Below, in pieces: positions 1-59,050 of a stretch of 64,000 nucleotides of DNA. Under the pieces are notes generated by a model, which was not told the DNA's origin, made no database searches, and was given only the letters and a program-made list of their open reading frames with translations. How positions within the stretch are numbered: position 1 is the stretch's first letter; each line of letters opens with the position of its first letter. The DNA is from Eledone cirrhosa (lineage: Eukaryota): contig OZ024745.1 of the NCBI GenBank assembly GCA_964016885.1, positions 38,998,001 to 39,062,000 on the forward strand. The letters are read 5' to 3'. The translations under genes and the position numbers were made by a program.

Positions 1-928
1 GAGTTACCATATTTTGTCAGAGCGCAACAGCATACCCCTTAAAATGCAACATATCAAGTTGGATAGTAAAGCATAATGTTATTTTCAATGTAAGCAATGC
101 GAAGTTGTATTAACTGCGACATGCAAGAATAGATACTGGATCTAGTAATCATAAAATAAAACGAAGCAAGCTTAACTATGAAATAATACCCGAATGTATG
201 TGATTTCTTTTATATTTCCATGGTTAAAAAAACTGCTATAGGGATGAAATATAAGGGAAGTCGATAAGATATTGGATTATTATATGCTATACTCAGTGAG
301 TACAAATCTGCTTCAAGCGCCATGGTGTGTTTATATAATATATTCTCCATTGCCTCAATACATTTATTTTTCGAGAATTCATATCAGATTTTCTGAGAAT
401 ACTAACATCACTCTATTGATCATGCTGAATGCATTATTATTGTTACAGCGAATATATGCTTAGAAGAAGCCTAGAACTTAAGCACATAAGTAGCTCAACA
501 TAGAAGAACTATATATATATATATATATATATATATATATATATATATATATATGCAAAAGTTCTATTTAAAATTGTTGGGATACAACAAGTAAATATTT
601 TATAACTGATATAAAGCACTCGACAAGTTTTTGGAGTAGATATACAATATTAATAAATGGAAACTATATTTATAAAACCATATTTATTTCATTATACATA
701 TTTCAGGGATACCAAATTAAAATATGGTATGCCTTCATCAGACAAAATACAATATATAAACAGTTTTATAAATAATTTTGACATACCCTATTAAATGCAA
801 CCATTATTTTTGGAAGCTGTCTGGATAGTGAAATGTTTATATTATTTTATTAGTTATAGTGTTAAGCACAATTAGAAAAAGACGGAGAGAAAGAAAGAAA
901 AAAAGTAAGTAAAGACGAACTGGAAAAA

Positions 929-2700
929 ATGAATACAGAGGCATTTTGTATAATGCATGAATTAGACATTGAGAATAAAACACAACCCTTCATGCCTAGG
1001 AAACCTAAGATCAATATGAAAGATCACAAAAGAAACTTTGAAAATGATTTGCCAGTCAGATTGATTGCACCATCTAAATCTGACCTGGGAAAACTTAGCA
1101 AAAACATTCTAGACAGGGTAATACAACAAATTAAAAACTTACCTAATTTACCTTACTTAAAGTTATGGAAGGGGACTGGTGAGGTTATTGAGTGGTTTAA
1201 AGAAATGAAATATAACTATAATAATAAGTTTATTCAGCTGGATATTGCTAACTACTATTCATATATCACTCCTTATCTACTGAATAAGGCACTAAATTAC
1301 GCATTTAAACATACTCACCTAACTAGCAATGAAATGTACATTATATTATCGGCAAGGAAAACATTGATAGAATTTAATAACCAATTCTGGACTAGGGCAG
1401 ATAGAGATAATAATTTCGACATAACTATGGGATCATCAGACTCAGCTGAGGTAACGGACCTTGTGGGCCTATTTATAATTAATTCGCTACATAGAAAAAT
1501 ACCAGGTGTAACCGGAAGATTATATCGTGATGACATGCTTTTACTTATTGAAAATAATAGCTGTGAACTAAATAGAAAAAGAAAACAAATTATACAATTT
1601 TTTAATTACCTTAATCTAAAAATAGAAATAGAGAATAACCATAGAATAGTCAATTTTCTGGATGTAACACTAAATCTCAACACATGTCTTCATTATCCAT
1701 TTCACAAACTAAATGAGAACTTGAATTATGTCAATTTTAACACTAATCACCCCAGATCTGTTAAAAATACTATAGTGAACTCTGTTCAAGAACGAATTTC
1801 AAGTATTTCATCTAACATAAATGTTTTTGATGAAAAAGCGCAGTATTACAATGAAGCGTTAGGTAGAGCAGGATATAGAGATAAAATTAAATACATCGAT
1901 AATAATAATAAGCAAACTAACCAAAATAATAACAATTTCAATTACGGTAACAACTTTAACAATTATAATAGAAAACATTACAATAATTCCAAAAGCCGAA
2001 AAAGAAATAGAACTAGAAATATATTATGGTTTGCCCCCCCCCCCCCCTTCTCACTAAATATTAAAACCCATATTGCTAAACTATTCTTTAATGCTCTTGA
2101 CAAACGCTTCCCTAGAACACATAAATATTAGTCAAATTGTAATAGACACACTATAAAATTAACTTACTCGTCCAACAAAAATTTAGCACACAATATTAAT
2201 AGAATTAATAATAGGAATTTAAAACCTAACCAAAATACCAATAATAACCCAAACAATATTCAATTAAATAACTGTAACTGTAGAAATAAATCTAACTGTC
2301 CGTTAAATAACAACTGCTTAGCTAAAAATGTAGTGTACAATTGTAATGTTAAAACTAATTTAAATTCTTTCAACTATGTTGGTTCCACCTCGACAGAATT
2401 TAAACTTCGCTTCAATAATCATAAGAATTCTTTCACAGATCCAAACAAAAAATCTTCAACTTCGCTATCTAACCTACTCTGGCACCTTAAACGAGATCAT
2501 ATTAAATATTCGATGAATTGGAATATTATTTCACTGCTACTCCTTTTAATTCCTCTTCAGATAATTGTGATCTTTGTATAGAAGAAATATTCTTTATATT
2601 AAAGTCCAAAAATTCCCTTAATTTAAGGAGCAATGTATTCAGTTGCTGCAGACATAGATTGAACTCAACGTTTAAATATAAATATAAATTTAAAATGTAG
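929..2700 (+). pseudogene. PLE RT-GIY-YIG ORF, 5'-truncated and disrupted
   Basis: Motifs QLDIANYY, FDITMGSSDSAE, LYRDD, VNFLDVTL, CNCRNKSNCPLNNNC, VVY..YVGST..FKLRFNNH, CDLCIEE, SCCRH; in-frame TAG at 2129 and frameshift near 2530. Confidence 0.92.
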
Positions 2701-4160
2701 TATAATTAATTAAGAAATTTAGTTAATATATGAAAACCTGTCGATAAATCATTAGATTCCTTCACCTTTTTCATTTTAAACTTTCTTCCTAAATATAAAC
2801 AAGGATATAATAAATTACTCTAAAATGTATATGCTCCCAATGTATTAAATAAAATATACGTGAGATAAATTTCTATACTAAATATAAGGTTATCCGTAGA
2901 ATCACTGGGTCTTCTAAATCTTTTAAATTATTTTTATTTTTTTATTTGTTTTGACCCTGATAGCTTCTAATAACTTTCATAAGTCTACCCTTTCAATATC
3001 TTGTTTGAGATATAGGTAGGATACATTTCTATACTAAATATATAAAACATATTATTTTAACTTGAGATAATCTATTGTGTTTTAAAGATATTTAATGCTT
3101 TGATATTTCTATATTAATATATTGATATTTGATTATCTCTATACAAATGCCATATGTGTGTATTAACATGCATATAAAAGTGTTATAGGGTCTATTTGTG
3201 TGTCTGTATATATGTCTGTATATATACATGAGCGATGCTGGAGGACTCACGCAGATATTTATTGATACATATGTATGTGTATATATGTGTGTGTGTACAT
3301 GTGATGTATGTTGCAGATATGCATAATATTAAATTCATGAACGGTAATCGTATATATGAGGACATGAATATTAATCTTTTATTTATGTATATATACTGTG
3401 AACTTTTTATAACACAAGGAGTGTATAACAGTGATCAAGTGGAATCATTTGCGCTTTGTGTGTCTATATTATTGGCTTGAGTAGACATAATTTATATTTT
3501 CAGGACGTACATATGTGTGTATATATATATACATATTTGTATCCTGATTTTTATAAATAGGGTACTTTTTGAAAGATTTAACTCAGATTTTGGTATATTG
3601 ATTTCAAGTTTTTAAACTAAACATATGGTCATTATTGAACAATCTTATTTTCTCATATTATATATCTATGTCCCATTCATGAATATTGATATTTATATTT
3701 TTATTATTCATTTCATATAAATTGTTAACTCAACTTAATATGACATGACTTAAAGTTGTCACTATCTCCCCCTCTCTCTATTTAGTATTTTCTCTCTCTT
3801 GAAGTTTTCTATCTGTATGATGATTTATTATCTCTTTGTTGCTTTCCTTTGTTTTTCTTATTTCTTCCTTTTTTTCTTTCTTTTTTATTTCCTCTTATCT
3901 ATTTATCTCTTTCTTTTCTACATACATTTCTCTCTCTCTCCGATATTTCTCCAGGTTTTCTTTTTCTCTCTCTCCTTCTTTCTCTCTCCTTCTCCCTCTC
4001 CGTTTTTTTTTTCTTTCTTTCTCGCCGTCTTTTTCTAATTGTGCTTAACACTATAACTAATAAAATAATATAAACATTTCACTATCCAGACAGCTTCCGA
4101 AAATAATGGTCGCATTTAATAGGGTACGTCAAAATTATTTATAAAACTGTTTATATATTG

Positions 4161-4225
4161 TATTTTGTCTGATGAAGGCATACCATATTTTAATTTGGTA
4201 TCCCTGAAATATGTATAATGAAATA
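4161..4225 (+). ncRNA. Minimal type I hammerhead ribozyme in family A pLTR (antisense copy at ~684-750)
   Basis: CUGAUGA 4169-4175; stem II AGGcAUACCA/UGGUAUcCCU; GAAA 4206-4209; near-palindromic stem III AUAUGUAU; 8-bp stem I UAUUUUGU/AUGAAAUA. Confidence 0.8.
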
Positions 4226-57240: not shown

Positions 57241-57712
57241 ATATATATATATATATATATATGTGTGTTAATCAAATTATGATGGGATTATTAAAGAAAC
57301 AGTGGATCTTTGGAATTGCTTTCCCCATCTCATATATACACGCACCTACACACTCATGCAGCTGCACCCAAACACGCATATGTATATGCGCGTGTGCGTG
57401 CTGGTGCAAGTGTGTGTATGTGCGTGTATGTAGGAAGATGAAGGAATGCAATTCTAAAGGATTCCATATATGTATATATATATATATATAAATATACATA
57501 TATACATATATATATATATATATATATATATATGTGTGTATATATGTGTATATATATATATATATATATATATATATATATTTATATATATATATATATA
57601 TATATATTTATATATATATATATATTTATATATATATATATATATATTTAATATATATATATATATTTATATATATATATATTTATATATATATATATAT
57701 TTATATATATAT

Positions 57713-57812
57713 GTAGATAAATCTACCAAGAGTTTACGTTAAATAATGAACTTTTTTTGTTTAATATAAGGAACTGTTTCATTGTTTTATTCATTATTTG
57801 TTTAATATTTTA
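57713..57812. mobile_element. 100-bp mini family B PLE
   Basis: Tail tip (matches 26572-26597) fused to sequence matching 34815-34891. Confidence 0.88.
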
Positions 57813-58136
57813 TATATATATATATTTATATATATATATATATTTATATATATATATATTTATATATATATATATTTTTATATATATATATATATATTTA
57901 TATATATATATATTTATATATATATATATATATATTTATATATATATATATTTATATATATATATATTTATATATATATATATTTATATATATTTATATA
58001 TATATATATTTATATATATATATATATATATATATATATATATATATATATATATATATATATTTATATATATATATATATTTATATATATTTATATATA
58101 TATATATTTATATATATATATATATATATATATATA

Positions 58137-59050
58137 GTAATAATAATACATTTGAAGACTAAAATCCAAAGAGGGCTCGATAAGGATAAATATGTATCAA
58201 ATATATAGGAACCGTAGAGCAAATATTTATTAAAATAACAGATTAACGTTTAAGCAAAGAATCGCTGCTTTCACCCTTAACGGGATCTTCTGAAACTAAC
58301 AAATGTATCTGTAAACGCAGAAGTGGATATTTCAAAAAACGTTGCAACCGGAGGAAGACAGGAAGACGATACTTTGGTTCGTGGAAAGGTTCGCTGTCAA
58401 AGAACGGGAAAAAACGAATATAATACGTCATTAATAGGAGCGGTGAAAAACAAGTACGCGCAAAGACAGAACCACGTTTATGCTATAAAAGAGGTCGTTG
58501 ACTAATGTTCTCTTAGGTGGTTCATAGAGACGTTCTCTGGCAATGAACGAAAAAAACGAAGATAATTCGTCATATGTGGAGCGTAGAGTACAATAGCACG
58601 CAAAGACAAAATCACGTAAATAGTATAACAGAAGTCGTAAACTAAATTTCTAACTAGGAGACCGAATGAATCTCCGCTACAGAGTTAAGAACAAAGTAAA
58701 TAAATACAATACAGAAGTAATAGAAATAAATAAATACATACACACAAACAAATACGTACATACACAAGCATACGCAAAACACTTACCATAGGTATACAAA
58801 ACCACGCACATATAACGTGGTTCTGTCTTTGCGCGTAATTGTTTTTCACCGCTCCTATTAATGACGTATTATATTCGTTTTTTCCCGTTCTTTGCCAGCG
58901 AACGTTTCCACGAAGCAAAGTATCATCTTCCTGTCTCCCTCCGGTTGCAACGTTTTTGAAATATCCACTTCTGCGTTTACAGATTGACTTTGTTAAGGGT
59001 GAAAGCAGCGATTCTTTGCTTAAACTTTAATCTGTTATTTTAATAAATAT
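58137..59050. mobile_element. Longest family C palindromic PLE derivative (non-coding)
   Basis: Arms ~58222-58477 and ~58814-59050, left tail, internal diverged tandem repeat. Confidence 0.85.

Follow-up and report, generated by a model that had tools for sequence, protein, structure and literature searches.

We analysed a 64-kb stretch of the 3.0-Gb genome of Eledone cirrhosa (GCA_964016885.1, contig OZ024745.1, positions 38,998,001 to 39,062,000; hereafter the window) and found that its Penelope-like elements (PLEs) of the Hydra clade carry two copies of a small bulged RNA stem in their 5' leader, and that the two fixed ends of their insertions mostly lie just 5' of one or the other copy. 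To judge from the sequence, this would be a new cis-acting RNA motif, its two copies marking both ends, within a known mobile-element clade. The original prediction had described a single covarying stem beside the short end of eight dissimilar PLE families and had read it as a cis-acting signal for internal initiation of reverse transcription. A covarying cis-element beside a fixed insertion end is indeed present, and placing internal initiation is its most plausible role; that reading was incomplete, as there are two stems, one per end.

The motif consensus is GCUC-Y…R-UH-GAGC-ACU, in which the ACU 3' of the core is single-stranded. The interior of the stem is unconstrained: the first copy (stem 1) spans 16-81 nucleotides (nt), and the loop of the second copy (stem 2) reaches ~115 nt in family B. 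For the comparison with relatives, we collected 119 homologous proteins, aligned 46 of them with the query, and retrieved 76 related metagenome loci. The bulge, previously given as UC, is really U-H (UU in 32, UC in 6 and UA in 6 of 44 metagenome stems), and the UC-richness of the window stems is a matter of chance as to which families occur there. The 3' flank (RCU) and the second stem had both been overlooked.

The motif is more frequent than expected by chance, as the original prediction required of a real signal. A descriptor of the form RCUC, at least 2 bp, a loop of at most 80 nt, UH and GAGY matched the window 10 times, versus 2.5 ± 1.4 (maximum 6) in 30 block-wise dinucleotide shuffles. 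In 180 kb taken elsewhere in the genome, the UH-bulge descriptor gave 33 matches versus 12.5 in shuffles, whereas a descriptor with a non-U bulge showed no excess (33 versus 39.5). Genome-wide, the pattern GCTCY-N2-24-RTH-GAGC-RCT-N10-30-ATG had 7652 matches versus 33 for the reversed pattern. A scan of the window with Rfam 15 returned 241 matches, the best 150 of which were all below the gathering score and mostly microRNA models on repeats. Two deviant forms were also seen among the genome-wide pattern matches (G000:C1:19291533, 36300842 and others): one family has a putative stem whose first inner pair is C.A (GCUCC…AUUGAGCAC), and another, resembling family F, has a bulge of 3 nt. Both are natural variants that could be useful for working out the recognition rules.

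The covariation claimed for the stem was borne out. Forty-four distinct metagenome stems were anchored on the 3' GAGC-N-C-Y and the nearest 5' RCUC only, leaving pairing and bulge letters free; a 5' half was found for 77 of 81 anchors, and two mis-anchored stems (the second of L098 and the middle one of L110) were retained in the counts. MAFFT left the 5' halves unaligned, and pairing was counted by script. The first bulge base was U in all 44 stems and the ACU flank was present in 41. Inner pair 1 was Watson-Crick in 41 of 44 stems (shuffle mean 24.2, maximum 35 in 20,000 shuffles), inner pair 2 in 31 (mean 12.3) and inner pair 3 in 29 (mean 10.9), while inner pair 4 was at chance in the same 44 stems. 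This covariation is local to each stem, with the caveat that pair 1 was preselected for pairing. Compensatory changes occurred on both sides of the stem and recurred on a reverse transcriptase (RT) tree of 47 rows, built by a quick method from own-genome and metagenome sequences only, with no named references or outgroup. Changes on the 5' side, on the 3' side and as a pair numbered 9, 9 and 9 for inner pair 1, and 3, 3 and 3 for the outer pair; inner pairs 2 and 3 were looser (16/13/18 and 17/16/23). Moreover, among 131 genomic copies, substitutions affected 1.8% of core-pair positions, 0.8% of bulge U and 0.5% of ACU positions, compared with 5.2% in the spacer and 12% at the second bulge position, the most variable one. 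The core pairs, bulge U and ACU thus vary three to ten times less than the spacer. A short core with ordinary folding energies is what chance, or mere common descent of neutral sequence, might also leave behind, but such an origin has next to no probability given the genome-wide enrichment of the pattern, the repeated two-sided changes and a core that is near-invariant among proteins only 33-46% identical to the query.

The stem-bearing elements had been labelled Naiads. According to the clade descriptions in PMC8557442 (Craig et al.), Hydra elements have one open reading frame (ORF) with a C-terminal GIY-YIG endonuclease (EN), DKT, RWK and CxCX5C motifs, CxxC and CxH around a conserved E and N, a hammerhead in the pLTR and no CCHH, whereas in Naiads the EN is N-terminal, DKA replaces DKG and a canonical hammerhead is absent. 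In the elements studied here, the RT is followed by a C-terminal GIY-YIG domain, with DKT, RWR or RWK, CxCX5C and hammerheads and without CCHH. These features match the Hydra definition of Craig et al., and the Naiad label is therefore wrong: on the evidence of their ORFs, the stem-bearing elements are Hydra-clade PLEs. The EN is C-terminal to the RT in families A, B and E, where no Naiad-type N-terminal EN was encountered; DKT is found in families B, C and D, where Naiad DKA was not seen, and one family F copy reads ADKP at a frameshift. No CCHH was read by eye in the EN of the stem-bearing families, nor the CX2-5CxxC linker plus CCHH of Neptune/Nematis. Hammerhead-like motifs lie upstream of the short ends, with variant cores in families C, D and E. 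For example, the protein of L017, an uninterrupted family B copy, has RRVRWR, SDKTGN, a C-terminal YIG and CNH, and the window ORF of family B has CNCRNKANC (a CxCX5C-type linker) and CRLC. Hydra open frames of ~830 amino acids exist. The protein alignment has the consensus RxRWK and ADKT, and C673, C675, C681, C771, C774, C799 and H801 are nearly invariant. The domain order, DKT, RWK/RWR, CxCX5C, lack of CCHH and hammerhead, as well as the (TA)n targets and the inverted arms with a tail, are shared with the Hydra clade as described in PMC8557442; the tails here are ~75-165 nt long versus 30-40 in that description. Pfam and PDB sequence searches gave no match, and the viral contigs searched contained no relatives. 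The ESM Atlas returned unnamed clusters with PF26215 in 25-31% of members.

The motif occurs twice in the 5' leader, between the hammerhead and the ATG. The order is hammerhead cut, ~40-90 nt, UAU/AUA, stem 1, ~40-70 nt, UAU/AUA, stem 2, ~15-60 nt and AUG. In tandem copies the leader doubles as the 3' tail of the upstream unit, as in family B, whose tail runs on as the next ORF's 5' untranslated region (UTR). A stem was found at most 150 nt downstream of 50 of 60 metagenome hammerheads (those with at least 60 nt of downstream sequence), compared with 1 when the upstream side was scanned and 11 when the antisense strand was. Between hammerhead and ATG, two stems were present in 16 of 18 distinct metagenome leaders; the exceptions are L104, whose second stem has an A.C outer pair, and L135, with a single stem. 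Among the published Hydra consensi, read by eye, Hydra-1_Ajap opens with two stems, Hydra-2_Amil and Hydra-2_Ajap have one after the hammerhead, and Hydra-1_Amil has a U.G variant. It should be noted that one subgroup (L090, L094, L117, L124 and Hydra-1_Amil) has a third, degenerate half-motif (..UUGAGUAG..) in the interval between hammerhead and stem 1.

Given these two stems in metagenome leaders and Hydra consensi, a second stem was predicted just past the long end of the window families. Stem 2 followed by a Hydra ORF was found past the long end in 9 run-through copies of family A, in 25 of family B and in the family at 41 kb (L078). Stem-2 patterns matched 700 times for family D, 528 for C and 80 for F, versus 0, 0 and 2 for the reversed patterns, and the same run-through junction recurs in most of those listed for D and C and in roughly half of those for F. 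A Hydra ORF lies behind stem 2 in families C, D and F, and in one copy of family E (L225). Seven of the eight families are thus, on this sequence evidence, Hydra elements with two stems. Measured from where stem 1 ends, stem 2 begins 38-59 nt further on in metagenome leaders and 41-72 nt further on in this genome. Tail length therefore follows loop length, as this gap is confined to 38-72 nt whereas the span of stem 1 ranges over 16-81 nt.

We then compared the insertion ends with the stems. The short arm had been said to end 2-8 nt 5' of the stem, and our reading of 2-10 nt in 11 window foldbacks agrees with this. Counting alignments to the leader that end at a (TA)n run, six families gave 145 TA-junction ends; 24 more alignments end without a TA run, and family R, whose stem 1 is deviant, was dropped. 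A few of the loci overlap, and some were fetched through stem-2 patterns. Just 5' of stem 1, at the short end, lay 57 ends and just 5' of stem 2, at the long end, another 75, so that 132 of 145 fall within -2..20 nt of a stem, in windows that together make up ~12% of the 390-nt query. In 105 of the 132, the stem is 2-5 nt from the last matching base. For example, in family B, independent sequencing contigs have TA loose ends at positions 1213 and 1350 of L017, where the two stems begin at 1218 and 1356. At most of the junctions, 2-6 nt are common to the element and the TA repeat. Moreover, TAT or ATA was present at -9..-2 of 27 of 34 metagenome stems, compared with 23% of other 8-nt leader windows (p 7e-12). 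In L049, L201, L208 and the Hydra-1_Ajap consensus, the 5' start lies a few bases before stem 1; overall, 11 of 101 5' starts were within 14 nt of stem 1, not clearly above chance. By their position, such starts may fit one RT halting where the other had started, or a single round on circular RNA.

We propose that each stem docks the RT/EN protein beside one priming site and that the spacing of the stems sets the length of the tail, which on present sequence data we consider probable. The RT/EN would bind each stem on the RNA, and the EN would nick both strands of the (TA)n target. Each nicked 3' end would anneal through 2-6 nt to the UAU/AUA next to a protein-bound stem, and two complementary DNAs (cDNAs) would begin, one per stem, and run outwards, giving outward-pointing long and short arms; the tail would correspond to the distance between the two stems. 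If the ends are RT starts, as we infer, the stem lies just 3' of the start and is uncopied at initiation, so it would have to act on the RNA.

Only one PLE, PAc (Poseidon), has been assayed for target-primed RT in vitro in the literature searched. As reported in PMC11167929, its protein nicks and extends both strands of AT-rich DNA, two internal RNA start sites bound the tail and match the tail ends in the genome, and its hammerhead cleaves only with protein present. The PAc account (PMC11167929) thus has in common with the Hydra elements two fixed ends downstream of the hammerhead with the tail between them, an AT-rich target, extension of both strands and a stem-loop near the start. PAc differs in starting within one AC-rich stem-loop inside the ORF, without target homology (PMC11167929), whereas the sites in the Hydra elements are in the 5' UTR, outside and 5' of two covarying motif copies, with 2-6 nt of target microhomology.

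The position of stem 2, only 15-60 nt before the AUG, would equally suit a 5'-UTR element for ribonucleoprotein assembly or translation control, or an aid to hammerhead folding, with the RT priming at accessible AU-rich linkers that are not measured by the stems. The protein dependence of the PAc hammerhead (PMC11167929) agrees with this, and target microhomology at both ends could suffice for priming. However, although AU-rich sequence extends over the entire leaders, 132 of 145 ends fall at the two stems with a narrow offset, and we regard such a role alone as unlikely. We also considered a signal at the DNA level, in which the GIY-YIG domain would recognise a single- or double-stranded DNA intermediate and cut an AT-rich site 5' of each stem, the ends being cut sites. 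The covarying inner pairs around loops of 4 to more than 100 nt imply folding of a single strand, and the genomic ends of PAc coincide with RT starts measured in vitro (PMC11167929); this makes cutting of DNA a rather improbable origin of the ends, even if the TAT/ATA by each stem resembles the target, the wobble test described below is almost symmetric, the EN of D. virilis Penelope requires the tail for cleavage of plasmid DNA (PMC11167929) and Craig et al. ascribed the tail to EN-mediated resolution (PMC8557442).

The strand on which the stem folds was addressed with a genome-wide wobble test, in which sense U.G was found in 512 copies versus sense C.A in 436 (p 0.015). A near-palindromic stem folds on either strand, and A.C outer pairs are seen in sense in L104 and L109. 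The stems could therefore fold on the antisense strand, as RNA or minus cDNA, and act as stop signals, much as the template boundary of telomerase does. Synthesis self-primed at the central inverted junction would halt a few nucleotides short of a stem, and the ends would join (TA)n by microhomology. An antisense template with self-priming has been proposed for the inverted structures of PLEs (PMC3846280). We consider this very unlikely, in view of the slight excess of sense U.G variants, of the hammerhead, ORF and arginine-sandwich geometry (see below), which all read in sense, and of PAc target-primed RT in vitro, which uses sense RNA and starts at the tail ends (PMC11167929).

Several observations nevertheless speak against docking of the RT/EN at the two stems. 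Thirteen of the 145 own-genome ends lie elsewhere than beside a stem, the L153 end is 24 nt before stem 2, and in metagenome loci only 5 of 11 end comparisons fall beside a stem (0-3 nt); these 5 used a same-family reference and the other 6 mostly a more distant one. The leader of L135 has a single stem, two of the six published Hydra consensi (Obim and Crog) show deviant forms only, by eye, and in family I a stem 2 with ORF was searched for and not found. Folding energies of whole leaders were ordinary (8 leaders, z -0.2 to -2.1), which means that protein or tertiary contacts would be needed to stabilise the stems, and in 3 of 8 leaders the minimum-energy fold pairs the 5' half of stem 1 with the 3' half of stem 2. 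The nearly symmetric wobble test means that the letters by themselves barely favour the sense strand. Finally, the assignment of the fixed ends as RT starts is borrowed, by analogy, from another clade. Cross-pairing as a conserved fold was rejected separately: the 5' half of stem 2 is Watson-Crick with the 3' half of stem 1 at pair 1 in only 5 of 16 cases and at pair 2 in 2 of 16.

In hepadnaviruses, the bulged stem epsilon places the RT, and the bulge itself templates a protein-primed start. The analogy drawn earlier with epsilon is apt for a bulged stem beside initiation and loose otherwise, as here the start would be outside the stem and the primer would be nicked target DNA. Going by letters, the bulge of TAR and 7SK appears to be a closer match. 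In TAR and 7SK stem-loop 1, an arginine sandwich is built on a U23.A27-U38 triple, with arginines reading G26 and G28 (PMC6189040). Compared with the structures described there (PMC6189040), the Hydra stem has the same Watson-Crick purine followed by a bulge starting with U and then G, A and G, with the A-U pair second after the bulge and a free second bulge base; its topology is circularly permuted, in that closure by the variable loop is on the opposite side and the GAG helix has an open end. Unlike TAR, it has no apical hexaloop, a conserved ACU flank and two copies, and its proposed role is RT positioning and not transcription control. The pair before the bulge is Watson-Crick in 41 of 44 stems, with a purine on the bulge strand in all 44; the G-C, A-U and G-C pairs after the bulge match the sandwich in letters and spacing, GAG itself having been the search anchor. 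In the proteins, arginine is found at -6 in 36 of 40 and at -4 in 38 of 40, relative to WxNPP, and this RxR is a candidate ligand of the stem.

We therefore suggest, tentatively and at somewhat less than even confidence, that recognition occurs via an arginine sandwich, in which the bulge U would form a triple with A-U flanked by two G's, and via the RxR before WxNPP. The RxR stretch may equally be a nuclear localisation signal, and the proteins have other conserved arginines, both of which tell against its choice as ligand. More tentative still is a combined scheme, in which two RT/EN proteins would sit on one leader via RxR with the TAR-like pair as a ruler, each using one nicked (TA)n strand as primer by base pairing to the neighbouring UAU, which would yield the inverted insertions with their tail.

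The motif is not universal among PLEs: this was ruled out by family K, which has a Neptune-type EN, with the CX2-5CxxC linker and CCHH, and no motif in the tail or in the leader past the long end. Its extension to all tailed families of the window also fails, as both family K (14774-14830) and family G (8921-9000, 51266-51336) are without it. In family K (minus strand; also L222), both fixed ends are followed by AUAUCG, with microhomology to (TA)n, and a small hairpin, AC-rich in its loop, begins at the short end and may be the start signal of the Neptune-type clade. The long-end region of family K forms a 46-nt tandem array at G000:C1:132947037-132947574. In the family G tail (minus strand), an unbulged ~8-bp hairpin lies at the short end in the motif's place.

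No stem was found within 250 nt of 9 hammerheads identified with a strict descriptor in 634 kb, a descriptor that missed the window families' own hammerheads, and no protein was linked to 8 of the 9 examined. A catalogue of foldbacks had the strict motif in 21 of 79 raw candidates; among the 79 are artefacts from microsatellites, tails truncated at internal TA runs, copies with mutations, and families lacking the motif (K, G and those in L077/L081 and L083). In the supplement of PMC8557442, six 9-mer forms of the 3' half gave 4 hits in the six Hydra consensi, each of them within a leader or tail; the Naiad and Chlamys files, which are far larger, gave 3, apparently in coding sequence.

The Hydra clade with its hammerheads and tail (PMC8557442) and two-site initiation (PMC11167929) have already been published. 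No description of a conserved, duplicated and covarying stem marking both ends was found in open-licence PMC papers or bioRxiv, a search whose scope did not include subscription papers, Repbase entries and two PAc supplements. No such stem is noted in the text searched of PMC8557442 ('hairpin' 0 and 'stem' 2 occurrences in the main text), and in that of a retrozyme preprint (10.64898/2026.07.22.740005) neither 'stem' nor 'tail' occurs. How PLEs choose internal start sites, and why a tail is present at one end, are standing questions, and the stem pair makes initiation directly testable, in that each stem can be broken, compensated, moved or deleted. For a target-primed RT, here one that is sister to telomerase, the stems would provide a minimal cis-signal that is portable. 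If the arginine sandwich proves true, the RNA-protein recognition motif of TAR and 7SK recurs in a retrotransposon initiation complex. Moreover, the motif can serve in practice as a marker when Hydra elements, and the short copies of them that are non-coding, are annotated.

Within the window, every stem listed in the original prediction was present and read as described, with correct coordinates and strands. All eight families were real; a ninth (M) and one more family D copy had been missed. Stem 1 of family A (ACUC-CAA/UUG-UC-GAGU-GCU) is at 618..637 on the minus strand, in the tail of the inverted long arm, with a second copy at 35093..35112 (minus). The hammerhead-like motif of this family, read by eye, is at 4169..4215 (plus) in the short arm, which joins (TA)n at ~4266, and its inverted copy starts at 741 (minus); the Hydra-type RT-EN ORF at 866..2676 (plus) is 5'-truncated and broken. 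In family B, stem 1 is at 26621..26701 (minus), with a UU bulge and a 63-nt loop, while only the 3' half of stem 2 (G-UU-GAGC-UCU) is present at 28144..28153 (plus). The 5' truncation of this copy falls within the stem-2 loop, and the full stem was found in tandem copies, e.g., L017. The family B ORF at 28180..30558 (plus) has the order RT, RxR-WxNxP motif, CxCX5C linker and C-terminal GIY-YIG and is broken near the C-terminus in this copy. A hammerhead-like motif with a long stem II is at 34685..34818 (plus), in the short arm, which ends at (TA)n ~34889.

Three copies of family C stem 1 were found on the minus strand (58175..58220, 5026..5071 and 16385..16430). The hammerhead core of this family reads CAGAAGA or CAGAUGA, with A at the normally invariant U4 and the stems otherwise intact (58292 minus, 16502 minus, 5147 plus; L199), which on sequence may be a family-wide natural variant or an inactive ribozyme. 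Family D stem 1 has its exact limits at 36494..36517 (minus); a copy at 15322..15345 (minus) has a UG bulge, and the copy absent from the earlier list, at 56907..56930 (plus), has a U.G pair in the outer helix. Family E has stem 1 at 54909..54980, a hammerhead-like motif with the core variant UUGAGAA at 54810..54841 and a Hydra-type ORF remnant from RT thumb to EN at 53580..54555, all on the plus strand. This core is found in families E and D (also L186, L194, L196 and L197) and corresponds to U3/A8 replacing C3-G8, a compensated pair. U3-A8 hammerhead variants are known. In the family F copy at 55135..55174 (minus), the first inner pair of stem 1 is mismatched (A.G), where other copies have C-G. 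Family I stem 1 is at 57062..57088 (minus). In the 41-kb family, stem 1 with a UA bulge is at 41170..41190 (plus), and a hammerhead-like motif with a mutated core starts at 41072. Stem 1 of the ninth family, M, is at 36681..36701 (minus), and the short arm of this family contains a hammerhead-like motif (36756-36805, plus).

Apart from the stems, a dispersed repeat of 100-190 nt, resembling a short interspersed nuclear element, has at least 8 copies in the window (9838-9940, 10205-10355, 22877-23057, 30579-30776, 43129-43230, 45111-45299, 50838-50989 and 62107-62241), one of them directly behind the family B ORF. The 3' region of family B is ~4 kb long, with microsatellite-like filling (27100-28100 and 32636-34080 of the window; L017), and holds a 634-nt tandem duplication (31297-31930 / 31990-32622). 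Family B units of ~6.65 kb form a tandem array at G000:C6:49.53-49.55 Mb and are far longer than the Hydra elements described so far (<3 kb).

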